A DNA stretch of 46,907 bases. It comes from a virus. Its lineage: Duplodnaviria; Heunggongvirae; Uroviricota; Caudoviricetes. Position numbers and translations under genes: made by a program. The DNA lies in the IMG/VR virus record IMGVR_UViG_2651869724_000014; one strand, 5' to 3'. The notes under the pieces are model-generated. The model was not told where the DNA came from. It saw only the letters and a list, made by a program, of their open reading frames with translations, and did not search any database. Positions 17,411 through 46,907 of this stretch are shown here, one piece after another (positions within the stretch are counted from its first letter, which is position 1; each line of letters opens with the position of its first letter).

Positions 17411-17489
17411 CTGCATTTATATCAACTGGTTATCCCCTTCTTCAGGTTCACCCTCGTTCGTTAAAAACCGCTCGAATCCACACTACTTT

Positions 17490-17536
17490 GCTGGTAAAAA
17501 TGCTGGTAAAGCTGGTTCGATTTGCGTTTTACCAGC
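17490..17536. promoter_or_regulatory. GCTGGTAAA repeats (candidate integrase arm-type sites)
   Basis: gctggtaaa at 17490 and 17502, gctggttcg at 17511, and inverted ttttaccagc at 17527. Related copies lie at 45726-45748 near attR. Confidence 0.3.
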
Positions 17537-17553
17537 ACGCGGAGGGAACCGTC

Positions 17554-22825: not shown

Positions 22826-23191
22826 GAAACGAATCCCCAAGAAGTTATGAATATCCCTTATGTAGTACTTACATTCCTAAAGAAACACCACATACAGTGG
22901 CATCAACAGATTTTATAATCCTTTGTTTTCCTAAAAACAAGTCTAAAACTGTATAAAAACACAGTTATGATATAGTCTATTGTTTTTAATGAATAAAAAT
23001 AACTAATCGCGTTTAACGAAGAGAAACTAAAAGTTAGCCACTGCTATGAAAAAGAGCTCCTGACAGCAAATAACTTTCAGAAATCTATAGCGATCTTCAT
23101 CTTGAGAGAGGCTTGTACTTAACCCGCAAAAGGTATAGGTATATAATTATTATCAGCTTATACCAAATGGCTATCAATGATAGGAATAAAA

Positions 23192-30412: not shown

Positions 30413-31933
30413 ATGATTAGTGAAATCACAACAAATGGCACTAAAATTAAACTAAGAAATAATAGTGCTAATGATATTAATATTTATGATATGGATTCTT
30501 TATCTTTACTTATTGGTATAAATGGTTCAGGGAAGACAAAATCCTTATGTAGCATAATTAACTATTTCTTTCCTAAAAATAACATGCAATTAACAGGCGA
30601 TTGTACAATATTAAACTCTAGCGGTGAAAGAATAGATCATACTGAAATTAGAAACTGGGGAGTTATATATTTCACCCCATTACCATTTAGACCAAAGTTG
30701 AATATTAGAGATAGTAGGTTTATTAACGCATCTCCAAGCTTGAATGGAAAAAATACTGTATTTGACCTTATCGAATACAAGGATTTAATATCTGACTTTG
30801 ATATTTATCCAAAAGTTGTTGCCATGAAGATGACAAACATTAGCAAAGTTGCAAGATTAATACTTAATATCGCTTTAAATAATAAAGATCTTAATCAGAA
30901 CAGCATACTACTGAATCACGGTCTCCTTGATATTTTGTCATTACGTGCAAAAATTGATGATAATATAGATAATGACGATTCAGACACTATAAAATATAGT
31001 ACCAATAAAAATATTCAAGCAGAAATTGATTCTATTATGCAGCGTTGCTCCGCGCATCTGATTGATGAAATACTTCATCGCGCAGGTGAAGAAAAACTCT
31101 TTTCCATATTTAGCATAATAGATTGGGCAAGTACAAAAAAACAGTTCAGTGATAACGTAGTAATTCCATTATTAAACAAACACTTAAATTTAAACATCCG
31201 TTCAAATAGAAAACTCAGAGAGACTAAATTATATTTAGAATGTGAAAGCAAAATAGATAGTTTACTTAATATTATAAAATATGAGGTAAAAAACCATGAA
31301 ATCATAAAGGATTCAAGACTTAATGAATCAACTTTAAGGTTAGAATTCGAAATAGACCCTTACGAAGGACAAAGGTTATTAACAAGATACAATTTGAATG
31401 ATATTTTTAAAATTGATTTTTCTGATATGAGTTCTGGGCAAATTGCTATTCTAGCTCAAATTGGCGCCATCTCTGACTCTATTACTAAACTGTCAGATAG
31501 AGGTATCAGATCAATACTACTATTAATAGATGAAGGGGACGCTTTTTTACATATCGATTGGCAAAGGAAATATATTTCTAATTTAAATAAAATGCTAGGC
31601 TCATTAAAAACATCTCTGGGCATAGATAATTTACAACTTATTCTAGCCTCGCACTCTCCATTGTTAGCCACAGACGTTCCCAAAGACTTTATAACTAGAC
31701 TACCAATTGAAAATGCTACGTTAAGTGGTTTTGCATCTCCTCTTTATATTTTACTAAATGAATCTTTTGGAACTAAAACCATTGGAGAATTTGCAACAAA
31801 TAAAATTGAAACCATCATCGACAAAATACCTAATAGAATACTGACTGAAAAAGATTATTACCTTATAAATAATATAGACAACCCTCTAATAAAAAGCGAA
31901 ATCGAACGCTTAATTATGCAGCATAAGGATTGA
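30413..31933 (+). CDS. Septu PtuA-like ABC/AAA_15-type ATPase
   Basis: Walker A GINGSGKT, signature MSSGQ, Walker B LLLIDEGDAFLH and an H-loop ASHSP. Confidence 0.8.
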   Translation: MISEITTNGTKIKLRNNSANDINIYDMDSLSLLIGINGSGKTKSLCSIINYFFPKNNMQLTGDCTILNSSGERIDHTEIRNWGVIYFTPLPFRPKLNIRDSRFINASPSLNGKNTVFDLIEYKDLISDFDIYPKVVAMKMTNISKVARLILNIALNNKDLNQNSILLNHGLLDILSLRAKIDDNIDNDDSDTIKYSTNKNIQAEIDSIMQRCSAHLIDEILHRAGEEKLFSIFSIIDWASTKKQFSDNVVIPLLNKHLNLNIRSNRKLRETKLYLECESKIDSLLNIIKYEVKNHEIIKDSRLNESTLRLEFEIDPYEGQRLLTRYNLNDIFKIDFSDMSSGQIAILAQIGAISDSITKLSDRGIRSILLLIDEGDAFLHIDWQRKYISNLNKMLGSLKTSLGIDNLQLILASHSPLLATDVPKDFITRLPIENATLSGFASPLYILLNESFGTKTIGEFATNKIETIIDKIPNRILTEKDYYLINNIDNPLIKSEIERLIMQHKD

Positions 31934-31945
31934 AGGTCTTCATAT

Positions 31946-32878
31946 ATGATTATTTCAATTAAAAACAACTGGGAAAAAGCAATAAAATTACATACACATT
32001 ATTTAAATAATTTGATATGCAACTTTTTAAATAAATCCATTCCTAGTTCTGAAGGACGAGACGAAGCTAAAAAATTTATTCTAGATGTGCATCACCTATT
32101 AATACTTGCCGGTAAACAAGATATATTGGAGAGTATTGATATATATAGAGAGTACAAACACAGATTGTCAATAACGCCGGATATATCGAAGCAATTCGAC
32201 AAAGAAATAAGATCTATTTTTAATTACAATAAGTTTGTTAGGAAAACAGGATCATGGAATGCATATACTCTATGTAAAAAATCAATAAGCAGAACATGTC
32301 CGTATTGCAATCAAGCATATGCTTTTTCGATACAAAAAAAGAATCGCGGTTTTCGTCCTACATTAGATCATTTTTATAGTAAGGATGACTTTCCTCACCT
32401 TGCATTGGTAATTAACAATTTAATCCCAAGTTGTAGTTCATGTAACTCAAGCCTTAAAGGCACAATTGATTTCTTCGCAAATGAACATTTAAACCCACTG
32501 TGGGATGATGAAGTTATAAATTTCGTTTTAACTCATGAGGATGGTGTTTTAACATTAATAGACGGAATGATTTCATCACCAGAAAAAATAAAAATAAACA
32601 TATCTTACGATACTACAAATATTTCAATTAAAAACACAGTAAATACTTTTTTGATAAACGAAAGATATCAAGAAATGACAATAGAAGCAATAGAATTTGC
32701 AACTGCCAAATTAAATCTTGAATATGCCGTATCTACTGGAATATCATATTTCAAAAATAACTCAGAAAGTAGTATATTAAGATTTGACAAAAGAGAATAT
32801 AAAAAATATTTGCTCGGTAAATTATATTTAGATATATATAATAAAATGCCAAATGCAAATATAGTTAACACTCGTTAA
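31946..32878 (+). CDS. Septu PtuB-like HNH nuclease
   Basis: CPYCNQAY...LDHFYSKDDFPHLALVINNLIPSCSSCNSSLKG. 13 nt after the ATPase gene. Confidence 0.75.
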   Translation: MIISIKNNWEKAIKLHTHYLNNLICNFLNKSIPSSEGRDEAKKFILDVHHLLILAGKQDILESIDIYREYKHRLSITPDISKQFDKEIRSIFNYNKFVRKTGSWNAYTLCKKSISRTCPYCNQAYAFSIQKKNRGFRPTLDHFYSKDDFPHLALVINNLIPSCSSCNSSLKGTIDFFANEHLNPLWDDEVINFVLTHEDGVLTLIDGMISSPEKIKINISYDTTNISIKNTVNTFLINERYQEMTIEAIEFATAKLNLEYAVSTGISYFKNNSESSILRFDKREYKKYLLGKLYLDIYNKMPNANIVNTR

Positions 32879-32977
32879 CTTCACGAATGAATAAGAAAAA
32901 ATTAAATTCATATGAGGGCAGCAACTCGCCCTCATAAGCCCCTAGCCATGCTCGTCACAGATCTTTAGAGGGAACTG

Positions 32978-33508
32978 TTAATTGGCTCTCCAGCCATTGC
33001 TGGTTTTAACAAGATTCATGGCACCATCAGCAGAATCATTCATTCCTTTAACGCTGGCGAAGGCTTTTTTGTCAATCCAGCCCGGAACGTCAACCAACTT
33101 CCATGTATAAGTCACGCGAACTACTTTCTGATTACCGTTTCCCGGCTCCGTCCATTCCTTAATCTCATCAACAGCACGACGACCAACACAGGCACCGTCT
33201 GCTGTGCTCCAGACTTTGGCTTTTTTGCCTTCCTCTGTTATCCCTAATACGTTCGAGTCATAGCCCTGTTCAAAAACCATCAGGCCCTGCTCAATAAAAC
33301 CGTCGAGGATCACTGAATTGGTCCCTGTGCCAGTCGAATCACGTAGTGGCTTGGCAAGACGGATGGGGAAGCTGGTGTTATTGTTATCCAGCGAGAAGCA
33401 GTATTTGCCCTGCCCAATCTTGGCATTAATCGCTTTCTCAAACTCACCTTTCTCACCACATCCCGCCAGTGCCAGAGCTGCGCCAGCAACGAGTAAAATC
33501 TTCTTCAT
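32978..33508 (-). CDS. Lipoprotein of unknown function
   Basis: MKKILLVAGAALALAG|C lipobox. The ATG at 33508 is preferred. Confidence 0.75.
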   Translation of the reverse strand: MKKILLVAGAALALAGCGEKGEFEKAINAKIGQGKYCFSLDNNNTSFPIRLAKPLRDSTGTGTNSVILDGFIEQGLMVFEQGYDSNVLGITEEGKKAKVWSTADGACVGRRAVDEIKEWTEPGNGNQKVVRVTYTWKLVDVPGWIDKKAFASVKGMNDSADGAMNLVKTSNGWRAN

Positions 33509-33667
33509 CTGCTTATCCATCCTGATAATCAAAGTGCCTAAATTTTTGACCTAATCCGGTCAGGGCTAGAGTTGTTGCGGGGTCCGGCTGATATCACATG
33601 GCAAAATCACCGCTTAACCAATTGATAGGATTCAATTCTTTTAGCGTCTCGTCATATCGTTTAAAAC

Positions 33668-33806
33668 GATCAAAAACAACCTTATAATAGCTTCCATCTA
33701 TCATAAATAAATATTCGATCGATTATAACAATTAATCACCGATCGATATCGCACATTCAATCGCTATAATCTATCAATAACTCATTATCGATCTTTTATA
33801 TCGATC
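33668..33806. promoter_or_regulatory. Cluster of five GATC sites embedded in (T)CGATCG(AT) motifs in a divergent promoter region
   Basis: GATC at 33668, 33717, 33741, 33790 and 33803, within about 140 bp of AT-rich DNA. Confidence 0.3.
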
Positions 33807-33925
33807 GTAATTTCAAGTTCTGATAGCCTTGCAACGCCGAGACCGATGCCATGAGTTTGGTGCTGTAGGACGTATAAAACGTAGCAAAGCTCTGTGAGCG
33901 GGTTCAGTCTCTTTAACTCATTAAC

Positions 33926-34414
33926 ATGGAGGAAGTAAGAGTGGAAGCAACAGGTATCGTATTTTTAGTAGTGCTCTTCGTCATTATCATGACCGCAGCG
34001 GATATACAAAAGAAAAAACACTACAACAGCTTCACGGAAGTTCTGGACGGCGACATTCTTTCGTATGAATGCCAGCAGACAGGTATTGTAATTGATACTC
34101 AAAAACATACTGTCCGTATTTTCAATAAAGATAAAGACAGCACATATACTTTTGATCAAATTCGAGAAATAAATTATACGCTTTCAGAGGGGGGTAAGTT
34201 TTATGGCAATGGAACATTACGAGGTATGAATAATGCGGCTATTGCTAACTGGAGAGAACAACTTTCAGCTAATAAACGGTCTGGCCTAAATATTTTAACC
34301 GATGATATTAAAAATCCCATGTGGAAAGTTAATGTCCCCTTGAAAAATAAAAGCACTTCAAATCACGAACTTTGCGAGCGATGGATGCTGGTATTTAAAA
34401 AGTATGTTTTCTGA
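33926..34414 (+). CDS. Hypothetical N-terminally membrane-anchored protein
   Basis: TM segment GIVFLVVLFVIIMTAA. No family recognised. Confidence 0.5.
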   Translation: MEEVRVEATGIVFLVVLFVIIMTAADIQKKKHYNSFTEVLDGDILSYECQQTGIVIDTQKHTVRIFNKDKDSTYTFDQIREINYTLSEGGKFYGNGTLRGMNNAAIANWREQLSANKRSGLNILTDDIKNPMWKVNVPLKNKSTSNHELCERWMLVFKKYVF

Positions 34415-34445
34415 GTCTCACCTTTCATCTATTTATGGAACAAAA

Positions 34446-34823
34446 ATGAAAAAATTATTACTTGCTATTTTTATCATATTACCACTTGGTGGCTGTACCG
34501 TTCATGGTAATAAATCCCTAACTGATGAAAATCATCAGACGGTTAAAGTTAAAATCGTCAATGGAAAAACAACCCAACAAGAAATTCTTGCTGCCTTGGG
34601 AGAGCCTCAGACACGCGCTACGAATGATGGACAGGAGATGTGGAACTACTCAAGTATGACGGGAGAAAGCCAACTATCTAACTACATACCGGGCCTTGCT
34701 CTGTTGACCAATAGCAGCACGGCACACATTAAATCACTGGATATCTGGTTTAAGGGTGATGTTGTGGAACGTTATGATTTTCGTCAGACCGCAAGTAAGA
34801 CTTCTCGCGGTTTGATGGATTAA
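34446..34823 (+). CDS. SmpA/OmlA (BamE-like) lipoprotein
   Basis: MKKLLLAIFIILPLGG|C, followed by the GKTTQQEILAALGEPQ block typical of the BamE fold. Confidence 0.65.
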   Translation: MKKLLLAIFIILPLGGCTVHGNKSLTDENHQTVKVKIVNGKTTQQEILAALGEPQTRATNDGQEMWNYSSMTGESQLSNYIPGLALLTNSSTAHIKSLDIWFKGDVVERYDFRQTASKTSRGLMD

Positions 34824-34907
34824 AAATACTATTACCATCATAACGTATTATGCGTTAATTATATATTCAGGAGTTAGACACTAACTCCTGCATTAAGTAA
34901 TCCTATT

Positions 34908-35930
34908 TTAATTCCCTGTTATTATTTTGCTTAGAATTTCGTCAATATATTCGGTTGTAACTATAAACGCATTTTTACCAATCTCACTTCGAAATATTTG
35001 GCATTCATCACTATGAAATTTACTAATGAAAAAATCAAATGAACACTGTGCTATAGCCTTATTAATACCATCCACGTTTGGTTTATCTTCTGGATTTGGC
35101 GTTGCATAAAGTAGCGAATATGAATCTAATGGAATATATATACATTTTAAATCATCATTACTTTCATAGAATGGCTTAAACTTTCGTTCCCCAGACACTT
35201 CAAAGATTACAATACTATCTCCTAAAATCAAAGATTGATTTGTTTTCAATACTTTGTAATGCATATTCTTATAAATATTACTTTTCTTATCCTCAGATGA
35301 AACCAAAACATCTAACTGAACCTTTTTTACTATTTCAGGTATTTTTGATATTATTTCTTGCTCAAACTTCGGAACTAATGTTGATAGCATCTTTTCTGCA
35401 GCATTTGGTAGCCATAATTGAACGTTATCAAAAAACATGGAGTTATATTGCTCATGTAGACTTGCTGGTATTGGTAGTTTATTTAACTCATTTTGAAGTA
35501 ATTCTTTGATTGTTTTTGGATTTCTTTGGAAATAATCAATAAGAGTTTCCTTGTCTAGCAATCTGTTTTTTAATTGCTCACCAAAATATGCCCATGAATC
35601 TATCATGTTTTCTCTTAAGTTTTTTGTTCTAATCTCCATATGATAAATAAACTCGGCTAAATCTTTCCTGTTGTCTAGGTTGTAAGTCCCATCGACTAAA
35701 CTATTAAGTATGCGTGAATAACTGTATGTTTCGTTTTCTGTTATTTTTTTATCAACGCTTGAATCGCCATAGTGAGAATAAAACTTGTTTTCCAAACCAA
35801 TATTCTCTACTATCATGTTTTCCTTGAAACAATCTTTTCTATACCAGTTAGTAAAATACTTCCCATTTTTTTCGTTAGAAAAACCTCTTTGTAAAAAACG
35901 TGGAATAAAATGTTGCCTATTCCCTGCCAT
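34908..35930 (-). CDS. DUF4238-family protein
   Basis: N-terminal MAGNRQHFIPRFLQRGFS (DUF4238 signature H-[FY]-[IV]-P-x-F-x-L-x-x-F). GAGGAG RBS before the ATG at 35930. Confidence 0.75.
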   Translation of the reverse strand: MAGNRQHFIPRFLQRGFSNEKNGKYFTNWYRKDCFKENMIVENIGLENKFYSHYGDSSVDKKITENETYSYSRILNSLVDGTYNLDNRKDLAEFIYHMEIRTKNLRENMIDSWAYFGEQLKNRLLDKETLIDYFQRNPKTIKELLQNELNKLPIPASLHEQYNSMFFDNVQLWLPNAAEKMLSTLVPKFEQEIISKIPEIVKKVQLDVLVSSEDKKSNIYKNMHYKVLKTNQSLILGDSIVIFEVSGERKFKPFYESNDDLKCIYIPLDSYSLLYATPNPEDKPNVDGINKAIAQCSFDFFISKFHSDECQIFRSEIGKNAFIVTTEYIDEILSKIITGN

Positions 35931-35978
35931 TATCTTCTCCTCATAGCAAATAAATATGGACAATATATTACCAACATT

Positions 35979-36119
35979 CTAACTATCATCAATGATTAAA
36001 ACAGAGGAACAAAAGGATTCTCTCTCAGCGAATGGGAACAATGGAACAGCAGCGGTTTCTTCGTAATCGGACTGAAACCGTAGTATTGCATCGGAACAAA
36101 AAATTAACTTACCTTCCAT
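35979..36119 (-). CDS. Small 46-aa ORF between the 128-aa gene and the DUF4238 gene
   Basis: AGGAGGAGG about 8 nt upstream of the ATG. Peptide: MEGKLIFCSDAILRFQSDYEETAAVPLFPFAERESFCSSVLIIDDS. Hand-found, below the track cut-off. Confidence 0.35.
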   Translation of the reverse strand: MEGKLIFCSDAILRFQSDYEETAAVPLFPFAERESFCSSVLIIDDS

Positions 36120-36174
36120 CGCTCATCCTCCTCCTGTAGTTATCAGACTAAATATTTTACCAGAACATAGGTTG

Positions 36175-36561
36175 TTATCGCATTTTGATTTTTACTGATT
36201 CATATTCGTTGATGTGATCCTTAAAAGTGCTTATTGCTTTTAGCAATGACCTGTTAAGTAAACCATTAATCTCCTGTGATGTTTTCCCGTTTCTGACGAC
36301 CACTATATATCCAAGAGTCAGATCTTGTCTTATCATTGGATTCAATGGCTCTATACCTATGCTAATCCCCGTGTTTTTGTATTTAGCAACCGGATACCCA
36401 ACTGAACTATGGATAACAATATTGCCGCTATCTGCAAGCCTTGATAACATTCTGTCGCTGTATATCGTTTTTCTTAAATCCTGTAAAACAGGGATATAGT
36501 GTTTATCCATGTTTCCTGTCAAAGCTGTAGGCAAGTAGATTTTTGTTTTTATTTTTCGCAT
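36175..36561 (-). CDS. Hypothetical protein, first gene of the DUF4238 operon (128 aa; an alternative ATG at 36597 gives 140 aa)
   Basis: AGGA RBS before the ATG at 36561. No family recognised. Confidence 0.55.
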   Translation of the reverse strand: MRKIKTKIYLPTALTGNMDKHYIPVLQDLRKTIYSDRMLSRLADSGNIVIHSSVGYPVAKYKNTGISIGIEPLNPMIRQDLTLGYIVVVRNGKTSQEINGLLNRSLLKAISTFKDHINEYESVKIKMR

Positions 36562-36644
36562 GATATTTTTCCTGTTATTGTTTTTATTTAATACCATGCA
36601 ACTAATAATAATATCAAAAATATTTATTATATTTTATAGGTGTT

Positions 36645-36913
36645 TTATAACATCTGTGATTTTATAGTTTCTTCACTCATCTGTGTGAGTTCTGAAACCA
36701 GACGAATATAAATATTTTTCAACCTGTCTTTATCACAACGACGTACAGACTCTGATAACAGATAATGACTATAATTATTGACACAAATGTTGTTGCCGTT
36801 TTCAATAGTTAATTTCAATCCAAGTTCTGTATCTTCTACTTTTTTATAATACAGATCATAAATGGTGTTTTATCATGTGGATGGAAGAGTGTGATCATTT
36901 TGATATTGTTCAT
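36645..36913 (-). pseudogene. Possible frameshifted small gene (about 88 codons)
   Basis: MNNIKMITLFHPHDKTPFMICIIKK* continues in another frame as YKKVEDTELGLKLTIENGNNICVNNYSHYLLSESVRRCDKDRLKNIYIRLVSELTQMSEETIKSQML. The frame switches at an A/T homopolymer near 36838-36846. Confidence 0.3.
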
Positions 36914-37020
36914 TATATTTTTCTTTTATTATTTTATTACTACTTAATACTCTATCGTAAGTGTAAAAATCAAATATATCTGTGTTTTCCTCATGCTTTT
37001 ACTTATTATTTTTAAACTAC

Positions 37021-37318
37021 TTTTTGAAAAAATCTTTATCTCTGTGCTGACGCACGGCTACGCCCTGACACTGATATTTTTATTTTATTCATCTCCTGTC
37101 TTTTAAATAAAAAGAAAAGTACTCGATCATTGTTTGATCTCTTTTCCTCATGATGCTGAATTTAGATCCTATGTTTAAACATAGTTTTTCCCTTTAGACA
37201 TATAGCATTTGCTCTTAAACGTATAGGAAAACTATATCTTTGATAGCAGCACTTCGTGATTGTTGCGAACAATCACTCTGCTGAACAGGGCTTGTTCCTG
37301 TTAATGATGGATTTTTCA
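37021..37318. repeat. Non-coding repeat unit, copy 1
   Basis: Shares with 37497-37808 a GC-rich box (37042-37076), a palindrome (37169-37184), a promoter-like block and two hairpins (37247-37283, 37285-37301). Confidence 0.8.
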
Positions 37319-37496
37319 ATTAATGATTTTTTCCATATAAATTACTGCCTGTAATCAATTACAAGCGTTTTAAGTATGAAGATAGTTATATGTGTCACCT
37401 TCATGCTTCCAACGTCTTAGCAAGCTTCCTGTGCGGTTTATTAACAGCTTATAGAAAACTATTACTTATATTTATTCTTACCTGATACATTCAATT

Positions 37497-37808
37497 ATTT
37501 TTTTGAAAATACATACATTGTGCTGGCGCACGGCTACGCCCCTGATACTGGTATAAAAATATTTTCCTTGTTCATCTATAATGCATTAATGTTTTATCAG
37601 TGAAAAATAAATAGATCAGTATAAAGATTATTCCCTCCACCGAGTTAGAACTCAGATCTTATGCTTGAATATAACATCTTCCCTCTGACATATAGCATTT
37701 GCTCTTAAACACATAGGAAAACTATATCCTTAGTAGCAGCACTTCGTGATTGTTGCCAACAATCACTTTGCTGGACAGGGCTTGCCCCTGTTAATGATGG
37801 ATTTATCC
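37497..37808. repeat. Non-coding repeat unit, copy 2
   Basis: GC-rich box at 37518-37554. The block from 37681 onward is near-identical to copy 1. Hairpins at 37737-37773 and 37775-37791. Confidence 0.8.
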
Positions 37809-37875
37809 AAAAAAAGATCGCGTCGAAGACGCATATAAATTAAAAGGAATATTAATTAAGCTCTCACACTTAAAG

Positions 37876-37912
37876 CAGCGGTTCGTGATTGTTCGAAACA
37901 ATCACTTCGCTG
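37876..37912. repeat. Third copy of the 37-nt interrupted hairpin
   Basis: cagcg-gttc-gtgattgtt-cga-aacaatcac-tt-cgctg. The inner 9-bp stem is identical to copies 1 and 2, and the outer stem carries a compensatory A-T to G-C change. Confidence 0.75.
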
Positions 37913-38060
37913 ATAGCAGTTATTAAGGAATACAATGCCCCCTGTAAAACCACTAAAACATAACGCAAAAGTAAAGCTGGACTCTCTTAACTTCTTACTA
38001 ATTATTTAATTATAAGCATAGTCCCGGACCAGTAAAATCGCGGCTTCACAACTTTTTTTC

Positions 38061-38144
38061 CTATGTTCGAACATAGCAAACTCCTATGTTCAAACATAGA
38101 TCCGTCCTATGTTCGAACATAGCAAGATCTATGTTCGAACATAG
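38061..38144. promoter_or_regulatory. Array of four 16-bp palindromes CTATGTT(C/T)(G/A)AACATAG upstream of the winged-helix gene
   Basis: Sites at 38061-38076, 38084-38099, 38107-38122 and 38129-38144 (spacing 23, 23 and 22 bp). A fifth site lies at 37169-37184. Confidence 0.7.
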
Positions 38145-38268
38145 TTTTTTTAACATATAACATTGTCATAAGAATATACTTTCTATTTTATTTATAGTTC
38201 TACTATTGACTTTCACTTTTTTGCATAGTATTAAAATAGATATAACAAAAATAATAAGAGGGAATAAT

Positions 38269-39003
38269 ATGAATACACCAGATGCTGATCTATTACACTT
38301 ATTTGAATCATTAACTACCGAGCAAAAGATTGATATCGCAAGACGCTTACTACAAAACAAAGAAATAAAATCAACGACAGTTATTTCTTCTGAGGAAGAT
38401 AAAGCTATTTCGTTTTCACAACCTTATGTATTTGCTTTTACTTCCAACTTTCGTGTGTTCTCTGATCTTGACATATCCAAGAATGAATTCCGTGTATTAA
38501 CCTATATTTTGGAGTATATGGAGTTTGGAAATCTGATCAATCTTTCACAATCATCGCTGTGTAAAGCACTGAATATCGCCTCCGGTAATATGTCTAACAT
38601 TTTTAAAAAACTCAGACAGAAAGGAATACTTGTAGAGCATCATGGTCATCTCTATATCAACTCTAACATTTTCGCAAAAGGGATGAGTCATCAACTGGAT
38701 CAGAAACGTAAAGAACAGTTGAGCAACGCTCGCAATCTTTGCGCAGAAATAGAACAGTATCCAGAAAGTTATTCAGCTATGTCAAAAAGTGAAAGAAGAA
38801 CCCTATCCTTAGAAACTGAGACCAAAGAAATCTATACTGACGCATTTGTTTTCAGTAAGAAGAAAAAGAATAACGCTGTTCCTAATCCCAATAACAGCAT
38901 ACATATTGATAAACCACGAAAAGTATATAAAAGAACAAAGGAAAACGAGGAAGCAAGGAGGAACTCTGTTGACGCAGACTCTCATATGCAGAAAGTATCC
39001 TGA
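38269..39003 (+). CDS. Winged-helix DNA-binding protein (RepL/MarR-like; candidate replication/maintenance regulator)
   Basis: KNEFRVLTYILEYMEFGNLINLSQSSLCKALNIASGNMSNIFKKLRQKGILVEH. The ATG at 38269 has an upstream GAGGG. Confidence 0.65.
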   Translation: MNTPDADLLHLFESLTTEQKIDIARRLLQNKEIKSTTVISSEEDKAISFSQPYVFAFTSNFRVFSDLDISKNEFRVLTYILEYMEFGNLINLSQSSLCKALNIASGNMSNIFKKLRQKGILVEHHGHLYINSNIFAKGMSHQLDQKRKEQLSNARNLCAEIEQYPESYSAMSKSERRTLSLETETKEIYTDAFVFSKKKKNNAVPNPNNSIHIDKPRKVYKRTKENEEARRNSVDADSHMQKVS

Positions 39004-39030
39004 TAAAATAACAACAACAAGGAAATAACA

Positions 39031-39822
39031 ATGAAAAAACTACCCGGTTCGCTTGAGATTAAGCTCCACGAAAAACTATCCAAGAGTGATATACTAAATA
39101 TATTGGCTGAGCAGATGACCATGCTTGAGGAAACATTTGGCATTCAGGAGTTTAAGATTTTCTCTTATCTTGAATGCTATATTGGAGATAAGAAACAAGC
39201 ATTATATTACAGAAGTCGCAACAGTGCCGTAGCCACATTCAAATTAAAGGGTCTGGAATCCCCGGTAAACACGGCTAAGCTCATATCAAAAGAAAACGGA
39301 CAGCGTATTGTTTCCTTCGATAAAGAACTGGATATAGACAGAATATCTGCTACAGTCCGAAATATACAAAACAATAATCCTTATCAGGGGTGGTCTGAAG
39401 GTATCAGTGTTGTTCCTGCCTCAATCATTAGTAAAATAATTGAAGTGGATATAATACGCACGCAGGAAGAACAAGGCAGACTTTACCGTATTGAAGAACA
39501 GCGCAAGAAAGAAGAACAAATACGCAAAGCGAAAGAAAGAGAGGAGTATGAACGACCTTTAAAGGCTTTTATTTCTTCAAAAATAAAAGAAAGTGTTTTA
39601 TCTGAGAAGGATTTCAAAAAGCAGGTTTGTTCAAGCTGTGACTATCTGAAAGATCGCTCCACAAAATCAAGATACTTTACTGAACGACCTGACTTGTTAG
39701 AGAAACATTATAATGAAAGATTAATTCGTTTCTCGATAAAAGGCACTGATGGCAAAGTAGGAAAAATAGAGATTTATACAGATACAGGCGAGCTTATTTT
39801 TCAACGGTATAAAACCAAGTAA
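39031..39822 (+). CDS. Hypothetical protein with a charged coiled-coil segment
   Basis: Co-directional with and 27 nt after the wHTH gene. EEQGRLYRIEEQRKKEEQIRKAKEREEYE. Confidence 0.65.
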   Translation: MKKLPGSLEIKLHEKLSKSDILNILAEQMTMLEETFGIQEFKIFSYLECYIGDKKQALYYRSRNSAVATFKLKGLESPVNTAKLISKENGQRIVSFDKELDIDRISATVRNIQNNNPYQGWSEGISVVPASIISKIIEVDIIRTQEEQGRLYRIEEQRKKEEQIRKAKEREEYERPLKAFISSKIKESVLSEKDFKKQVCSSCDYLKDRSTKSRYFTERPDLLEKHYNERLIRFSIKGTDGKVGKIEIYTDTGELIFQRYKTK

Positions 39823-39907
39823 TGTTTTTATACCTATGCCAATTTGACACCTGAACTATATCTCGTAATGTAAATATATCCACTATTTTATCTACGAGGT
39901 ATTTCTT

Positions 39908-40387
39908 ATGAGAAAAGTAAAAACAGACAACAGTGATTTAATCGAATACATAAATACAATCAAAGAACTAAAAAACCATATTTCGATAGAAGAATACAGA
40001 AATGAATATCGCAAACTGCGTTCTGATGATATTCCATTGGTTAAGGCTCAGAAATTTAAATCTGCACATACCGAACTTCGCAGACTTGAAAAGAAGAGGG
40101 AATCTCTTATTGAATACTTTATTGATGAGTTAAATCCCATCAGCAGTTCAAAAGCTAACACATCAGCGAGATCAACTGGTAATCTCGATTTATTTAACGA
40201 ACGCGTGTTATACCGTAAGGCCATTTCAGAAAAGAGTGATGAAGAAATAGTAGCCTTAGTCATAAAACAACGCACAGAAGCCGCTGTTGAGTTCCAGCGT
40301 TCAATTGAACAGAGTCTTGAGCAACTATCTCGTATCTCGTCAAAGTTCGAACCAGCAAGCCAAAAGCGCAGGAAAATGTCTCTTTAA
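39908..40387 (+). CDS. Hypothetical helical protein
   Basis: ORF with a GAGG RBS. No family recognised. Confidence 0.65.
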   Translation: MRKVKTDNSDLIEYINTIKELKNHISIEEYRNEYRKLRSDDIPLVKAQKFKSAHTELRRLEKKRESLIEYFIDELNPISSSKANTSARSTGNLDLFNERVLYRKAISEKSDEEIVALVIKQRTEAAVEFQRSIEQSLEQLSRISSKFEPASQKRRKMSL

Positions 40388-40544
40388 ACGAGTCAATGTT
40401 ATTTTATGTGAAATGGGATGTATTAGATTGCTTATGCAATAATGTTTACTATATTATTTACTGACTGTTTTTTTTGATTTTTCCAACAGCACCGTAAGCA
40501 TTATTTTTATTAATCGCCCCTTTTAAAACACCGGATGGCATACT

Positions 40545-40949
40545 ATGAGTGAAGCTCTTAAGGCACTGAACAATATTCGTATACTTCGCGCACAGGCTCG
40601 TGAAACAGATCTGGCAACTCTGGAAGATATGCTGGAAAAACTCACCACAATCGTTGAAGATCGCCGTGAGGAAGAAAATTCAGCCCGTAAAGAACAAGAA
40701 GAACGTCAGGCTAAACTGGAAGCCTTCCGCCAGAAACTGCTAGAAGACGGTATCGATCCTACAGAACTACTCGCTTCAGTTGGTTCATCTCAACCTAAAG
40801 CAAAATCAACTCGTGCTCCTCGTCCAGCCAAATACAAATATACAAATGAAAACGGCAATGAGCAGACTTGGACGGGTCAGGGCCGTACTCCTAAAGCGAT
40901 CGCTGCTGCTATCGAAGCTGGTAAAACACTGGAAGACTTCGCGCTCTGA
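40545..40949 (+). CDS. H-NS family nucleoid protein (island-borne paralogue)
   Basis: [33 protein letters not shown] oligomerisation domain and the C-terminal [15 protein letters not shown]-binding motif. Confidence 0.9.
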
Positions 40950-41291
40950 TCGCAATAAAGCCGTCAATCTAATTTGGCGGTTTCAAATTAAAGAACCTTT
41001 GAGCCTGTCAGTAATTCTGTGTAACTGCCATCGTATTAAAGGTAATCGCTCAGTTCACCGAACTCATTTGAGCCCCAAAAAATCATCCTCCAACCTAACA
41101 TGACTGGCTACTTTCTCTCATTAGTTCTTGACCTAATAAACCTAATAGCAGATCATAAGCTTAGGTGACTACTTAGGATTACGCGGATTTTGTAGTCCTG
41201 TTATAATAATGTGTAATAAGCGCAACTTCTGTATTTTCTTAAAAATTATAAAGATAGCAACTGCTTAAAAGATGCTGTTATGCCTTAGGAG

Positions 41292-41930
41292 ATGAAAATG
41301 CAAACATTTAAAGATGTATTTATAGAACTTGGTGATAAGTCAATAATAGATTTTATTTCTAAGGTTACTGATAACGTTAAATCCTATTGGAGTCGATCAT
41401 ATGAAAGTGAGGAAAACTCAAAATATTTAGGCGAAATTGCTTTTAGCTTTAAAAGGTCAGGTGATAACAGATTACCTGATGCTGGTCTAAGTATTTTCCA
41501 GAAAGAAAATAATATTTGGTATATTCCTAATGTTGTACCTTTAGAAAAAGGACAGCTAAACTACGATGAATATAATACAATAATCACGGATTTTTATAAC
41601 TCGTGCTTAAAACCAGTTGCACTTGAGTTAAAAATTGATATTAAAATAACCTCGGATTCCTTAACTGCAGAAGATGTTGTAGGGGTTTACGCAGGAAAAC
41701 TATTAAAACAATTTTCATCTTTAGCGAATAAATCAACAGGAAGTTCACATCCAAATGATCAAGAAAGATGGTTTGCATTTATTGTAGAAACATGTAAAAA
41801 AGATAAATATGTGAATACTTCTGATCTTGTCCGAGTATTATGTGAACAAGGCTGGAGTGAAGATTCAGCACATAAGCTAGTTATAGAGTATGAGTTTGCA
41901 AGGGACTTAATCACGTACATGGAGCAATGA
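41292..41930 (+). CDS. Hypothetical protein, first gene of the PIN-like pair
   Basis: 212-aa ORF whose stop lies 3 nt before the next start. No family recognised. Confidence 0.65.
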   Translation: MKMQTFKDVFIELGDKSIIDFISKVTDNVKSYWSRSYESEENSKYLGEIAFSFKRSGDNRLPDAGLSIFQKENNIWYIPNVVPLEKGQLNYDEYNTIITDFYNSCLKPVALELKIDIKITSDSLTAEDVVGVYAGKLLKQFSSLANKSTGSSHPNDQERWFAFIVETCKKDKYVNTSDLVRVLCEQGWSEDSAHKLVIEYEFARDLITYMEQ

Positions 41931-41933
41931 ATC

Positions 41934-42644
41934 ATGTATTTATCAATAAGCAAAGTTAAAGATGAATTGTTGAAAGATGAACAACCAGTATTCTTCTTTG
42001 ATACGTGTTCAATATTAGATATATTAAATTCTATCCATTTACATGGATTGTCAGACTCTTATGCAAACAACATGCTTGAACTTATCAAAATTAACGGTAC
42101 GTCTTGTTGGTTAGTTTCCTGCCAAAACGTTAACGAGGAGTGGATTGATAATATTGATGCTGTTCTTTCCACTATGGATAAAGAAATAAAAAAACTAGAT
42201 CGTAGTATAAGTTCGACAATTAACGTGACCAACTTAGTCTTAAATACAAATTATTCTATGCCACCGAAATTTTCAGGCCTCAATATATCTAGTAAAATAA
42301 AGTCCTTATCAGAACATTTTCTAAAATCTTGTCAGTGTATTGAAAGGACTAATGATCATACGCTGAAAGCAATGCAAAGAGTTCGAAAACTTGAAGCACC
42401 AGCAAGGAAAGGAAAACTTGAGCCAAAAGATTGTGAAATTGTTGAATGCTTTTTAGAATTCTGTCAAGAACTAAGGAAGGCAGGTTTTAATGAAAAAATA
42501 ATATTCGTTACTGCAAATAAAGAAGATTTTGGCTCATACAATGCTCTAAAACCACCACTTGATATTCAATTTGCATCTCATCAAGCACTATTAATCAATA
42601 GTGTAGAACATGTACTTGCACTAGCGAAAAGACAGATAAAATAA
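41934..42644 (+). CDS. PIN-like (DUF4935-type) putative nuclease
   Basis: Acidic quartet in the PIN order: FFFDTCSILD, NVNEEW, PKDCEIVECF, FVTANKEDF. Confidence 0.55.
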   Translation: MYLSISKVKDELLKDEQPVFFFDTCSILDILNSIHLHGLSDSYANNMLELIKINGTSCWLVSCQNVNEEWIDNIDAVLSTMDKEIKKLDRSISSTINVTNLVLNTNYSMPPKFSGLNISSKIKSLSEHFLKSCQCIERTNDHTLKAMQRVRKLEAPARKGKLEPKDCEIVECFLEFCQELRKAGFNEKIIFVTANKEDFGSYNALKPPLDIQFASHQALLINSVEHVLALAKRQIK

Positions 42645-42874
42645 ATATCTAAGGCTTTAGCTTATTTTTCCTAATTTGGCAGAAATTTTTAGATCTATTA
42701 TTCTAAGCAGTTTCTGTCCAGAGATGAGTTATGTCGTTTATATGTATATTTTAGGATCAGGTCATGCTAGATAATAACCACGGTCAGATTTAGTCATTAG
42801 AAAGGCTTTAATACTCAAATCTGAGCTAATCAAACACAGAAAAATAGAAGATCAATTCTATGAGGCTAAGCTTC

Positions 42875-43129
42875 TTAAAATTTTTTTACTTTTGAAATCA
42901 ACCTTACCCACAAAGATTGTTTTTTATCCGTCGATGATGAACAAGGTTCATCGAGTTCACTTTGACCACTCCATAGAGCAAAAAAATCACCATTCTTGTT
43001 ATCTATGGAGAGTTCTTTATCATCATTAACAAGCTGGAGCCATTCTTCACTACTGATTGGAACACTTGCGCTATCGAACCAATGTTCCGTTCTTACTATG
43101 TGAAGCTCCCAGCCCATAACCACCTCCAT
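42875..43129 (-). CDS. Hypothetical protein
   Basis: ORF only. Confidence 0.45.
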   Translation of the reverse strand: MEVVMGWELHIVRTEHWFDSASVPISSEEWLQLVNDDKELSIDNKNGDFFALWSGQSELDEPCSSSTDKKQSLWVRLISKVKKF

Positions 43130-43166
43130 GTTTTTGATATAGATACGTTATTATACAGAACACTTA

Positions 43167-43409
43167 TCAGTCAATGAGATCTTCTGGCGAAACCCGGTCA
43201 CATGCCATTTTCTCAAGTAATCTTTGTGCTCTTTTCATTTTCAACTTACGCGCTTTTTTATCACCAATCTCCTGATAGTATTCTTCCCGACGTTCGTTAA
43301 CCACGCTCCTGAACTTTTTTAAAAGCTGTTCAAGTGTTTTGAGGTCAGTGGTTGCGGCTTCTGCTTGGATTTTTTTATACATATACATCACATGAAATTC
43401 ATCAATCAT
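43167..43409 (-). CDS. Truncated H-NS (H-NST-like: oligomerisation domain only)
   Basis: MIDEFHVMYMYKKIQAEAATTDLKTLEQLLKKFRSVVNERREEY aligns without gaps to the H-NS N-terminus. No DNA-binding domain. Confidence 0.7.
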   Translation of the reverse strand: MIDEFHVMYMYKKIQAEAATTDLKTLEQLLKKFRSVVNERREEYYQEIGDKKARKLKMKRAQRLLEKMACDRVSPEDLID

Positions 43410-43482
43410 TTTTTTGCTCCTTGGATAGACTAATAAGATTTGTTTTCAGCCCCAAGAAGGGGCCGATAGACACCAGAACATA

Positions 43483-43779
43483 TCAACATATTGATTCCGC
43501 CAGAACCGTATAATGCATTTTAGCTAATGCCTGCTTAACCCCTTTAAAATCCACCTCAGACAGTTTTTCAGCAGCGTTCTTTTTCCATGCTTTTTTCAGA
43601 AGATGCTTCTCAGCATTTCTCATCGCCAAATCGATTAGCTTACAGACAAACTCATGATCCATTACATGCGTTATAATCATATTACTTGTTGTTTTATCCT
43701 TTGAGTTAAAAAGCTCCGCGTAGATATGCAAGGACACAATATAAAAGATTTCAGTGTTTTTATTTTTAAATGTATTCAT
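43483..43779 (-). CDS. Hypothetical protein (98 aa from MNTFKNKN)
   Basis: AGGA RBS before the ATG at 43779. Confidence 0.5.
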   Translation of the reverse strand: MNTFKNKNTEIFYIVSLHIYAELFNSKDKTTSNMIITHVMDHEFVCKLIDLAMRNAEKHLLKKAWKKNAAEKLSEVDFKGVKQALAKMHYTVLAESIC

Positions 43780-43823
43780 TGGCTTTTCCTTTTGGTTAAT
43801 ATTAAAAATGAAATGCTGTAGTA

Positions 43824-44114
43824 TTAGCGGTATACACACTTATAGATAATCCAAAGCTGACGAAGGTGTTGCTTTACCTTACTGTGGCTTACTTCTCCAT
43901 AAATCCGATTCCTTTTACCTTCTTCTGAGTCATCGTAAAAATGATATCTCGTTTTTTTAATGATACTTTCCATGATGTCATTCATATTGTATTTATTGTT
44001 GATAAAATAATAAAAATCATCTGGTGCATTCCTTCGCAATCCGTCCATATAGCTCCTGAAATAATATTCGGCTTGTTCAATAAACTGTTTTGTCGTAATA
44101 AGTTCTATCTTCAT
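43824..44114 (-). CDS. Hypothetical protein (start MKIELITT; alternative ATG at 44126)
   Basis: GGAGAG RBS before 44114. Confidence 0.5.
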   Translation of the reverse strand: MKIELITTKQFIEQAEYYFRSYMDGLRRNAPDDFYYFINNKYNMNDIMESIIKKTRYHFYDDSEEGKRNRIYGEVSHSKVKQHLRQLWIIYKCVYR

Positions 44115-44195
44115 ATTTCTCTCCATTATTGTTTAGGGTAATAAGATGCCCTGTGCGAATAGTTATCTGTTCGACACGAGATCTTGTTTCTTTTT

Positions 44196-44414
44196 TTATG
44201 CAGCGTTCTGGCGTGAGTTTCGAATAGTCGCGTCAATCCATTCATCAATCTCACTTTCAATGAATGCCACCGCTCTTATCCCTGTTTTCACCTGCGATGG
44301 AAACCGTCCGGCTTTAATCAGTTCGTAAATCCACGTTTTTCCAAATCCGGTGCGTTTTATTACTTCTGGTAAACGGATAAACGTTGTCTTTGCTTTTATT
44401 TCTCTTTTAACCAT
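44196..44414 (-). CDS. alpA: AlpA-family transcriptional regulator / excision-control protein
   Basis: FIRLPEVIKRTGFGKTWIYELIKAGRFPSQVKTGIRAVAFIESEIDEWI. Confidence 0.85.
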   Translation of the reverse strand: MVKREIKAKTTFIRLPEVIKRTGFGKTWIYELIKAGRFPSQVKTGIRAVAFIESEIDEWIDATIRNSRQNAA

Positions 44415-44564
44415 ATTTATCTCCTGTGTTATTCGATGGAGATAATTGTAGGGAGATCGCTTGTGAAAAACTAGGTTGGTTCACCAGCCCTGAACCGGAG
44501 GGATGTTCAGGACCAGTGAATTCAGGGGATGTTTATAAGAAATGAATACAGGGGAAGTTCAGTG

Positions 44565-45440
44565 TTAGTGGATGTCCCTTGTTTTCTTTTTTGTTTCTGG
44601 TTTGTCATTCATTGCGATGACATCAAGAATAGGCGAGTTTTTCACCAGATTGTTTTTTATGAAAAAATCATTCAGTGACTTGAAATAATTGTCATTGCTT
44701 AAAAAACCGTGGGCAAGCGGATAATCAGTGTCTTTGATTTGCTCGCTACCTCTGGCATAACGCATATCGGGGTGTAGGATACCAGCCAATACAGGGTATT
44801 TGATTTTCTGGTTGTTGAGCTGTTCCCAAGCGATGAGGTCCATCAGAGGGATAATCTTGTAATCGAGTATCTTCTGGAATGTTTTATGACCAAACCGGAA
44901 ATCTTTTTCCGGTGGTTTAGGCACTTTCAGGTGCTTTTGCCACTGACTGATAAGCACTTTCAGGTGTTCAGCCAGATCGTCACTGCTGGCTTCCTCCAAG
45001 TCAATTTCAATCAGCATCTTGTTCGCAGGATTCAGCCCTCCCTGTTTCAGGTATTCAGATATGTAATCCGAACTCACTGAAACATTTTCTTCTGGAGGCG
45101 TATTCTCCAGCCGATACATTGCCCGTCCATAGTTAAACAGTGAATTCCTTGTCATTGGCCTGACAGCATAGCTATGAGCCAGCATGTGGCTCTCAGAGAT
45201 CCATTTATCCTCCAGCAAGACCCTGCCAGAGTGGATCATCGCATCATGGTGAATAACGGCATTACGATGCTTATCGTCCAGTGTTTCCCATTGCTGTCTG
45301 GCTTTATAGACAAACATGCGCCTTTCCAGTTCTGAATAAATTTGTTCCAGAGTGAGGTCTTTCAACGCATCATAGCGACTAACATCAAACCATTTGCTTA
45401 GTGCTTCCACTATCTCTGCGACATGCATTCTTTTTGTCAT
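44565..45440 (-). CDS. Hypothetical island protein (291 aa)
   Basis: ORF next to alpA near attR. No family recognised with confidence. Confidence 0.6.
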   Translation of the reverse strand: MTKRMHVAEIVEALSKWFDVSRYDALKDLTLEQIYSELERRMFVYKARQQWETLDDKHRNAVIHHDAMIHSGRVLLEDKWISESHMLAHSYAVRPMTRNSLFNYGRAMYRLENTPPEENVSVSSDYISEYLKQGGLNPANKMLIEIDLEEASSDDLAEHLKVLISQWQKHLKVPKPPEKDFRFGHKTFQKILDYKIIPLMDLIAWEQLNNQKIKYPVLAGILHPDMRYARGSEQIKDTDYPLAHGFLSNDNYFKSLNDFFIKNNLVKNSPILDVIAMNDKPETKKKTRDIH

Positions 45441-45795
45441 TCTTTTCCCTAAAAATGTTGATATTCATTACATTGACGTTAACGCATCCGGCAGCATAGA
45501 GAAAGAGAATAATGATAACTGGCGGTCTCAGCATTGGTCATAGAGTGTTCTTCTGTCTTTCGTTATCTTTCCGGAGGTAAACATATCGGGTAATAGCGTT
45601 AATCTGTTGAATCAGCGATTGAAGATTTGTAGCAGAACAGGGAGATCGTTCAGTGAGATTTAGTGAAGCGTGTTGTCATAACTAATTGATAGTAATTGAC
45701 TTTATGGTGATATAGCATTAAAAATGCTGGTAAATATGATGGTAAAAACAGACGCCATTTTTTGAAAGCCCCTAACAGCAGGAGATACAGATGAA

Positions 45796-45820
45796 GTTCG
45801 AGTCCAGTCAGAGGAGCCAA
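45796..45820. repeat. attR core (copy of the asnT 3' end)
   Basis: gttcgagtccagtcagaggagccaa, identical to 17351-17375. Confidence 0.85.
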
Positions 45821-45908
45821 ATTCTAAAGATTCGCTTTTTTAGCGCAATGTCACTGCTCTTAGTTGAGCATTGCTTTTTAACGGATAGCGGGTTTTTGAC
45901 ATCTTAAG

Positions 45909-45939: not shown

Positions 45940-46125
45940 GCTATGAACGCCATCACCATTTTCCCCTCGATTATAAAACTTGAGTAATTCAGTAGTCTCC
46001 CCTCTTGCAACTCACACCCAAAACTGCTTAACGAAAAGTTATTAATTTTCAATCATATTGCTATCAGGATCTACTTTTTTTCGCTGTGCTAGAAAGGGCG
46101 CATTTATGTTAGCTCGTTCAGGGAA

Positions 46126-46815
46126 GGTAACCGTGAAGGTTACTGGCAACTCAAGCACCGCCCATGTTGCTAGCTTTATCGCTGATCCATCGACTATCGC
46201 CGCCACCAACAGTGATTTAAGTACCTTAAAGGCAACGGTTGAGGATGGCAGTGGTAACCTGATCGAAGGTCTCACTGTGTACTTCGCCTTAAAAAGCGGC
46301 TCCACCACATTAACGTCATTAACAGCAGTGACCGATCAAAACGGAATCGCGACAACAAGCGTGAAAGGAGCGATAACGGGGAGCGTCACTGTAAGCACAG
46401 TCACAAGCAAACAGTAGATATATCGCTAGTGGCAGGCCCAGCAGACGCCTCGCAGTCCATCCTTAAGAACAACCAGTCATCACTGAAAGGGGACTTTACC
46501 GATAGTGCTGAGCTACATCTTGTTCTGCACGATATATCAGGCAATCCGATCAAAGTTTCTTAAGGGATGGAATTTGTGCAATCAGGTACAAACGTGCCCT
46601 ATATGAAAATTAGCGCAATTGATTACAGTCAAAATATCAACGGTGATTACAAAGCTACTGTTACAGGAGGCGGAGAGGGTATCGCAACGCTGATCCCCGT
46701 ATTGAATGGTGTTCATCAGACGGGCCTGAGTACCACGATAGAATTCATTAGCGCGGAAACCAGACCAATGACCGATACAGTGTCAGTGAATGGTGCAAAC
46801 CTACCGACAGCTTGA
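46126..46815 (+). pseudogene. yeeJ: Remnant of the inverse-autotransporter adhesin gene yeeJ (Big_1 Ig-like repeats)
   Basis: VKVTGNSSTAHVASFIADPSTIAATNSDLSTLKATVEDGSGNLIEGLTVYFALKSG... The frame is broken at about 46417 and 46562. The large 5' part is absent and the 3' end is cut by an IS. Confidence 0.7.
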
Positions 46816-46907
46816 ACCGCCCCGGGTTTCCTGGAGAGTGTTTTATCTGTGAACTCAGGCTGCCAGATCATCGTTTCCGATGGAAGCATAATAAGCTTTT
46901 TCTGCTT
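46813..46907 (-). mobile_element. End of an IS629/IS1203-type IS3-family element (runs out of the window)
   Basis: Terminal repeat TGAACCGCCCCGGGTTTCCTGGAGAG. The minus strand encodes the transposase C-terminus ...AEKAYYASIGNDDLAA*. Confidence 0.8.

Follow-up and report, generated by a model that had tools for sequence, protein, structure and literature searches.

We describe a two-gene cassette in a 46,907-nucleotide (nt) stretch of DNA catalogued in IMG/VR as the Caudoviricetes virus record IMGVR_UViG_2651869724_000014; the whole of this stretch is called the window here. The downstream gene (gene 2) encodes a PIN-domain protein of the PIN_12 family, formerly DUF4935, with an intact active site, and the upstream gene (gene 1) encodes a partner from a family that has no name. 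The two genes are strictly paired, both are under purifying selection, and they are found in mobile and defence-rich contexts. We give about an even chance to the reading that the pair is a toxin-antitoxin-like or abortive-infection cassette, in which a harmful nuclease is checked by its partner, possibly with a contribution to the stability of the island that carries it. A first-pass annotation, made from the sequence, had proposed a non-canonical toxin/sensor pair, and that proposal is consistent with all of the evidence gathered since. The pair and its start signals are laid out as follows:

41292-41930, plus strand: gene 1 as the mechanically called open reading frame (ORF), 212 amino acids (aa)
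41298-41930, plus strand: gene 1 as it is likely translated, 210 aa, a partner protein of an unnamed family with an acidic isoelectric point (pI) of ~4.9
41934-42644, plus strand: gene 2, a 236-aa PIN-domain nuclease of the PIN_12 (formerly DUF4935) family
41287-41291, plus strand: putative Shine-Dalgarno sequence AGGAG of gene 1, abutting the ATG at 41292 and 6 nt ahead of the ATG at 41298
41921-41924, plus strand: putative Shine-Dalgarno sequence GGAG of the PIN gene, within the 3' end of gene 1 and 9 nt ahead of the PIN gene ATG

The identification of gene 2 as a PIN-domain protein is supported by both profile and structure. It matches Pfam PF16289 with 42.5 bits against a gathering cut-off of 32 (E-value 1.2e-10), residues 21-199 aligning to positions 2-172 of the 172-position model, and PIN_12 was the sole PIN-clan Pfam model to match. 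The precomputed PF16289 tag was present on all 30 of the 30 gene 2 homologues. An AlphaFold2 model of the protein (predicted local distance difference test, pLDDT, 90.6; predicted template modelling score, pTM, 0.88) had VapC proteins as its best structural matches in Foldseek, with a probability of 1.0, while a sequence search returned no solved structure for this PIN family. The four motifs on which the earlier annotation had relied are all present (FFFDTCSILD at residues 20-29, NVNEEW at 65-70, KDCEIVECF at 165-173, and FVTANKEDF at 191-199). Its view that they hold the acidic positions of a PIN active site stands, as the PIN active-site residues are conserved, but the choice of residue needed correcting in two motifs, where the conserved glutamate is E69 rather than E68 and E171 rather than E168.

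To describe the family, one genome per species was scanned for the ANKSTG motif of gene 1; this gave 137 confirmed loci among ~185,000 species representatives, and 80 were kept. Conservation counts for both proteins refer to 80 divergent homologues or pairs. Mapped onto the window, the conserved features of gene 2 are these:

42000-42020, plus strand: codons of D23, T24, C25, L28, and D29, the first acidic cluster, where PIN strand 1 ends; D23 kept in 79/80 homologues and C25, L28, and D29 in 80/80
42123-42386, plus strand: helical insertion, residues 64-151, between PIN strands 2 and 3 in the secondary structure of the model
42138-42140, plus strand: E69, at the start of the helical insertion, kept in 80/80
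42378-42380, plus strand: R149, near the end of the helical insertion, kept in 80/80
42429-42446, plus strand: codons of D166, C167, and E171, the third acidic cluster, kept in 80/80
42516-42527, plus strand: codons of N195 and D198, the fourth active-site position, in an (S/T)-(S/A)-N-x-x-(D/E) motif; N195 kept in 79/80, D or E at position 198 in 77/80

P156 is also invariant. Judged by this conservation of acidic residues, the active site is maintained throughout the family and is intact here. The first-pass remark that the protein is much larger than a VapC toxin (236 aa, compared with about 130-150 aa) has a simple explanation in the helical insertion, whose ~90 residues account for the excess of ~100 aa. 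The same long helical insert after strand 2 was described by Matelska and colleagues in 2017 (PMC5499597), who were the first to recognize DUF4935 as PIN-like and placed it in the VapC-like group of the PIN-like superfamily. Gene 2 shares with PIN_12 the fold, the acidic residues, and this insert, and scores above the PF16289 cut-off. However, classical DUF4935 proteins are ~350 aa long, carry an extra C-terminal alpha/beta region, and are mostly single-gene units (PMC5499597), whereas gene 2 is a 236-aa short form that ends shortly past the PIN core and is strictly paired with an upstream gene 1. The current Pfam model covers the PIN part only, so gene 2 is still a PF16289 member as the family is now defined.

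The pairing itself is the second line of evidence. At 73 of the 80 loci found via gene 1, a PIN homologue lies directly downstream on the same strand. Starting from the PIN side, we found loci on two Sinorhizobium plasmids and nine metagenome contigs, and gene 1 lies directly upstream in all 10 of the 10 informative ones. Neither of the two outcomes that the first-pass annotation had named as refuting its proposal, a lack of support for a PIN fold and an absence of synteny in other genomes, was therefore observed. Three exceptions are at contig ends (L012, L043, and L061). A 4-nt ATGA overlap, seen at 30 loci, is the most frequent spacing, and gaps of 2 to 5 nt come next. Because the same order and tight spacing recur in dozens of unrelated genomes, the recurrence of the pair is not a matter of chance. 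Among the 80 pairs, the pairwise identities of one protein track those of the other (r = 0.94), and the pair is thus inherited as a unit. Purifying selection acts on both genes: with an E. coli copy of 89-92% identity and a Vibrio copy as references, the ratio of nonsynonymous to synonymous substitution rates (dN/dS) was between 0.09 and 0.23 in gene 1 and between 0.09 and 0.15 in the PIN gene.

In the window the two ORFs are separated by 3 nt, as had been noted, and the junction reads TGA-ATC-ATG. The one revision to this layout is the start of gene 1: the 210-aa form that begins at the second ATG (41298) is most likely the real one. We favor this start because AGGAG leaves no space before the first ATG but 6 nt before the second, and because the RefSeq call in a 99.6% identical E. 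coli locus (a 633-nt, 210-aa gene) and the length of the homologues (nearly all 210 aa) agree with it. That the GGAG of the PIN gene falls within the last codons of gene 1 suggests that the PIN gene is translationally coupled to its partner. Sequence scans around the pair did not find a convincing palindrome, a promoter excess, or a terminator. There was no Rfam RNA match at the pair, and a type III RNA antitoxin is unlikely.

The pattern in which the two genes are lost favors a harmful nuclease. An intact gene 1 is found beside a truncated, frameshifted, or remnant PIN gene at L014, L039, L056, and probably L078, and without any PIN gene at L017, L021, L035, and L064, for seven or eight loci of this kind; both genes are decayed at L033. 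The only PIN gene seen without gene 1 is that of the enteropathogenic E. coli (EPEC) strain E2348/69 (L002). Window positions 31283-39309 and 41936-45823 are 99.6-99.9% identical to this strain, which is missing ~2.6 kb corresponding to window positions ~39310-41935, with the junction in a GTATT microhomology. The deletion takes part of the ORF at 39031-39822, a DUF4756 gene, an H-NS paralogue, and the whole of gene 1, and it also removes the PIN gene's ribosome-binding site and ATG. The remaining PIN frame is intact and is not fused to an upstream frame. Consequently, the sole partnerless PIN gene has lost its means of translation as well. This strain serves as a natural control, given that the otherwise near-identical islands, including the one in this window, keep both gene 1 and the PIN start codon.

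Such asymmetric decay fits what would be expected if the free nuclease were harmful. We read the pair as a toxin with its controller because loci that keep the partner only are tolerated, while a nuclease on its own is unseen unless it has been silenced. The acidic pI of gene 1 was also counted in favor of this reading. In the mechanism that we propose, the cassette would be a self-contained, horizontally mobile unit of two genes. Gene 2 would be an active, metal-dependent PIN_12 nuclease and, by analogy with other PIN-domain toxins, most probably an endoribonuclease; gene 1 would be its obligate partner, made first, which would bind the nuclease and keep it inactive in normal cells. Were the partner lost, displaced, or changed by a trigger, most plausibly phage infection or loss of the island, the nuclease would be freed, RNA would be cut, and growth would stop. 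The outcome may be an abortive-infection type of defence, stabilization of the island, or both. The physical binding, inhibition as the direction of regulation, the RNA substrate, and the trigger are the parts of this scheme that we infer. Abortive infection seems the most likely function because the pair is found in defence-rich, mobile contexts and because Cosus (Brc24), a single-gene PIN_12 antiphage system carried by mobile integrons, blocks phage T7 in a PIN-dependent way (bioRxiv 10.1101/2024.07.02.601719). In Cosus, mutations of T12, D14, and D96 weaken protection against T7, and PIN_12 proteins can therefore be defence effectors.

Several observations weigh against a toxin held by its antitoxin. 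Gene 1 does not look like a type II antitoxin: in its model it is fully folded, with no DNA-binding domain detected, and there is no operator-like palindrome upstream. The partner is also conserved above the nuclease (mean pairwise identity of 40.6% vs 33.9%, and higher in 90% of 3,160 comparisons), the opposite of the usual antitoxin pattern, which suggests that it does more than plug an active site. The decay asymmetry consists of few events, and the larger set of loci is the one found via gene 1. Neither protein matched any model in PADLOC-DB v2, including the PDC candidates, at E-values up to 10. No homologue of the pair was found in 50,697 phage records or in IMG/VR viral contigs, and our literature search found no paper on these proteins or their pairing, and no toxicity, neutralisation, or phage data.

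Much of this depends on what kind of protein gene 1 encodes. The first-pass annotation had recognized no motif in it and had considered it too large for a typical VapB antitoxin, and neither judgement was overturned. Gene 1 has no family match in Pfam, NCBIfam, PADLOC, or PHROGs, and a profile search of PDB sequences also gave no match. The AlphaFold2 model (pLDDT 92) is a two-domain protein, fully ordered, with no segment below pLDDT 50 and no DNA-binding domain detected. A word-indexed search retrieved 99 homologues, nearly all of 206-232 aa with a few shorter fragments, from Citrobacter, Vibrio, Shewanella, Saccharophagus, Thiothrix, Acinetobacter, and Firmicutes. A profile search of 1.84 billion cluster representatives then placed 1,893 clusters in the family at E<=1e-3 and 730 at E<=1e-30, with almost all of the best 150 matches between 205 and 230 aa, and the family spans at least nine bacterial phyla. 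Three features of the protein matter for what follows:

41298-41651, plus strand: predicted N-terminal alpha/beta domain, to about residue 120 of the 212-aa ORF, with invariant W33, N80, P83, Y94, N95, and F101
41667-41924, plus strand: predicted C-terminal helical domain, residues ~126-211
41712-41780, plus strand: helix-loop-helix F-S-xx-A-N-K-S-T-G-xx-H-P-x-D-xx-R-W-xx-F, residues 141-163, 99-100% conserved in 80 syntenic homologues

The ANKSTG-xx-HP-x-D-xx-RW loop is the candidate functional site of the partner. The C-terminal domain is a separate, independent module, as two homologues (P0130 and P0132) have one N-terminal domain followed by two tandem copies of the ANKSTG helical domain. 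The modelled N-terminal domain resembles KA1, METTL16 VCR, BamC N-domain, TBP-like, and aIF2-alpha domains in fold, and the modelled C-terminal domain resembles the KaiA C-terminal bundle; the fold matches of the model do not single out any DNA-binding family. About 25 homologues bear a precomputed tag for PF08986.17 (DUF1889). We could not reproduce a DUF1889/YoaC identity, as hmmscan with PF08986.15 found nothing in gene 1 or in the tagged homologues even at E-values up to 10, and hhalign of the gene 1 alignment against E. coli YoaC gave a probability of 0.7%; the newer Pfam version of PF08986 may have been rebuilt.

These properties are a reason to consider that gene 1 may be a sensor, activator, or specificity subunit. 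The PIN protein would then be inert by itself, and the loop of gene 1 would sense a conserved signal, whether nucleotide, RNA, or host factor, and license the nuclease, or bring it an RNA substrate; neither protein would be toxic alone, and the function would still be defence. A partner better conserved than its nuclease, with an invariant polar loop between two helices, speaks for such an arrangement, as does a stable folded protein in place of a labile, disordered antitoxin. Several of the domains that the N-terminal domain resembles (KA1, METTL16 VCR, TBP-like, and aIF2-alpha) are RNA-binding, and the C-terminal domain is duplicated in some homologues. There is also a precedent in PANGU, whose two-gene defence operons are not toxic from either gene alone and require both (10.64898/2026.04.06.716658). 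With a family present in at least nine phyla, the target of the loop would have to be universal. However, a nuclease that is harmful when free better explains both the loci at which gene 1 is intact but the PIN gene has decayed and the joint loss of gene 1 and the PIN start codon in E2348/69, and we consider this alternative somewhat unlikely.

Whichever way the nuclease is controlled, a polar loop that is invariant across at least nine phyla suggests recognition of something universal. Its target could be the invariant acidic pocket of the nuclease, a phosphate-bearing ligand, RNA, or a host factor. As a tentative extension, the family may represent a widespread two-gene antiphage system that has not been described before, with ~1,900 partner clusters at 50% identity, in which the partner is a sensor that controls a PIN_12 ribonuclease through this loop; candidates for the universal infection signal that it reads are a nucleotide, a host factor, and RNA that is damaged or modified.

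A nuclease checked by its partner need not be aimed at phages, and the pair may be purely an addiction module, that is, a toxin and antitoxin that stabilize a mobile element by post-segregational killing and have no role in phage defence. The pair is indeed carried on integrative or mobilisable elements and on plasmids, with relaxase, RepL, and integrase genes, and HipBA and Fic-type toxin-antitoxin genes are frequent neighbours. However, many of the other neighbours are dedicated to defence, including cyclic-oligonucleotide-based antiphage signalling system (CBASS) genes, TIR/Thoeris-like genes, restriction-modification genes, Qat genes, and PD-Lambda proteins, and one PIN_12 protein, Cosus, defends against T7. 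Addiction and defence are also not mutually exclusive. Addiction as the only role therefore seems improbable to us. A role outside of conflict altogether, as an enzyme that processes RNA in a housekeeping or accessory capacity together with a cofactor, or as a decaying, functionless remnant, is very hard to credit: the pair is scattered and uncommon (it occurs in 10 of 5,426 complete E. coli genomes and in 137 of the ~185,000 species representatives), its GC content is 32% while that of the E. coli host is ~51%, it always lies in variable, mobile contexts, and purifying selection on both genes together with the intact active site shows that it is not a remnant.

Comparison with described systems places the pair, read as a toxin-antitoxin-like or abortive-infection cassette, near several of them. 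In VapBC-type modules the usual order is partner first and toxin second. The present pair is alike in having the PIN nuclease downstream and the partner gene upstream, overlapping or abutting (with the 3-nt gap here), in having VapC proteins as the best structural matches to gene 2, and in its orphan partners beside decayed nucleases, which fit a toxin. Gene 1 differs from VapB in being 210 aa long, without an AbrB, ribbon-helix-helix (RHH), helix-turn-helix (HTH), or Phd domain in Pfam or NCBIfam and without a disordered tail; there is no operator palindrome upstream, and here it is the partner that is better conserved than the nuclease. The pair is thus VapBC-like in layout and probably in logic, but does not fit the description of a small VapC with a DNA-binding, partly disordered VapB. 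A broader frame is provided by the NetFlax network, in which PIN toxins are found with partners from many unrelated families and such pairs overlap with phage-defence systems (Ernits et al. 2023, PMC10440598). To the extent that family searches can tell, gene 1 is unrelated to the partners listed in that study, among them PanA, RHH_6, and DUF955-like proteins.

Cosus belongs to the same Pfam family as gene 2 and is likewise carried by mobile elements. It differs in being one gene of ~380 codons without a gene-1-like partner, whereas gene 2 belongs to a strictly two-gene subfamily. A local tblastn of gene 2 against the Cosus supplementary sequence, which was obtained by text recognition and is error-ridden, gave no similarity; hhalign with a Cosus-like fragment also gave none, and a database search with the Cosus N-terminus returned fragments only. 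SanaTA and other named toxin-antitoxin defence systems were considered and had no PADLOC match. PANGU includes a YejK-like nucleoid-associated protein (10.64898/2026.04.06.716658), and the H-NS paralogue beside the pair was considered as a possible sensor by analogy. This candidate was rejected: the neighbour is an H-NS paralogue and not YejK-like, the H-NS gene is missing beside the pair in E. coli E7476, and H-NS is not among the 25 commonest neighbour Pfam families.

The window itself provides an island context for the pair. The earlier annotation had placed the pair between an H-NS paralogue and an H-NST-like gene on a defence-rich island. The RefSeq annotation of the 99.6% identical E. 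coli locus bears out the first part, and the presence of other defence-type genes (NsnA/PD-T4-2-like with HEPN, PDC-M62, and DUF4238) bears out the second. The main features are as follows:

17299-17374: tRNA-Asn, at which the island starts
17488-18822: integrase, at the island start
18889-20720, minus strand: genes for a GmrSD_N protein and a HEPN (RiboL-PSP) protein with a 1-nt overlap; PADLOC matches NsnA (E-value 6e-83) and PD-T4-2_A
20922-22199: second integrase gene
23177-24941: ATP-grasp protein with an MvdD-type pre-ATP-grasp domain; the next ORF, of 284 aa and with no family match, overlaps it
30413-32878: AAA_15/AAA_21 ATPase and HNH-type protein, PADLOC candidate PDC-M62 A and B (Septu-like)
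34908-35963, minus strand: DUF4238 protein, no PADLOC match
40545-40949: H-NS paralogue, 342 nt upstream of the pair, as annotated by RefSeq in the identical-by-99.6% locus
43167-43409, minus strand: truncated H-NS (H-NST-like) gene, downstream of the pair, from the same annotation
46042-46907: ORF fragments of a large gene with Ig-like domains (invasin/intimin-type), beginning just past the DUF6387 gene of the island

The GmrSD_N and HEPN genes, flanked by the two integrase genes inside the tRNA-Asn island, are probably a separate defence system. The PDC-M62-type pair is also found in E2348/69. The DUF4238 protein belongs to a family that has been reported as a defence gene in P2/P4 hotspots. 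The island has a MobA/MobL relaxase and a PilV shufflon protein as well. In strain EC01, a similar island end adjoins ldtA and cobT, and the flanking context varies by strain.

Elsewhere, the immediate neighbours of the pair at the 80 loci include HipA, Fic/SoFic, TIR, Mrr, restriction-modification subunits, QatD, PD-Lambda-3 and PD-Lambda-5 proteins, SLATT, and integrases. Copies matching at 89% identity are present in five other E. coli genomes. In the only such copy that we inspected, that of strain E7476 (L003, 9588-10939), the pair lies beside an adenylate/guanylate cyclase gene and an opposite-strand gene of 183 aa, which are possibly a Pycsar-like system; this copy is within a conjugative element with DotA/TraY. 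On S. meliloti plasmid pRRI128_3 (L085, 1-3202), the pair directly follows a CBASS-type operon with ThiF/E1-like, JAB/MPN, and SAVED-domain genes, and a canonical Phd/VapC pair lies 1.5 kb downstream.

A third conserved gene was not found, as no neighbour family occurred in more than 6 of the 137 immediate neighbours. At six loci from different genera (L071, L072, L074, L075, L079, and L081) a same-strand ORF of ~140-184 aa abuts gene 1 upstream, and at three others (L036, L057, and L067) a 449-aa same-strand ORF, probably the HipA-like gene of the neighbour scan, lies 43 nt upstream of gene 1. The upstream ORFs at these nine loci either belong to mobile-element backbones that the loci share or mark three-gene variants confined to certain lineages.

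Experimental work on the large nuclease family PIN_12/DUF4935 is almost absent, and the only functional datum that we found is the activity of single-gene Cosus against T7. Here, a short-form branch of this family is strictly tied to a partner from an uncatalogued family that is large, widespread, and unusually conserved. While a two-gene conflict module built on a PIN nuclease is a familiar type, the partner family is new. If the pair is indeed a defence or toxin module, it would add a new system to the defence catalogues, one that is now invisible to PADLOC, and it would define a new class of PIN regulator, with the invariant loop as a clear candidate for the site at which the nuclease is switched. 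If gene 1 is a sensor, the pair would define a partner family not described before and a novel mode of control for PIN nucleases.

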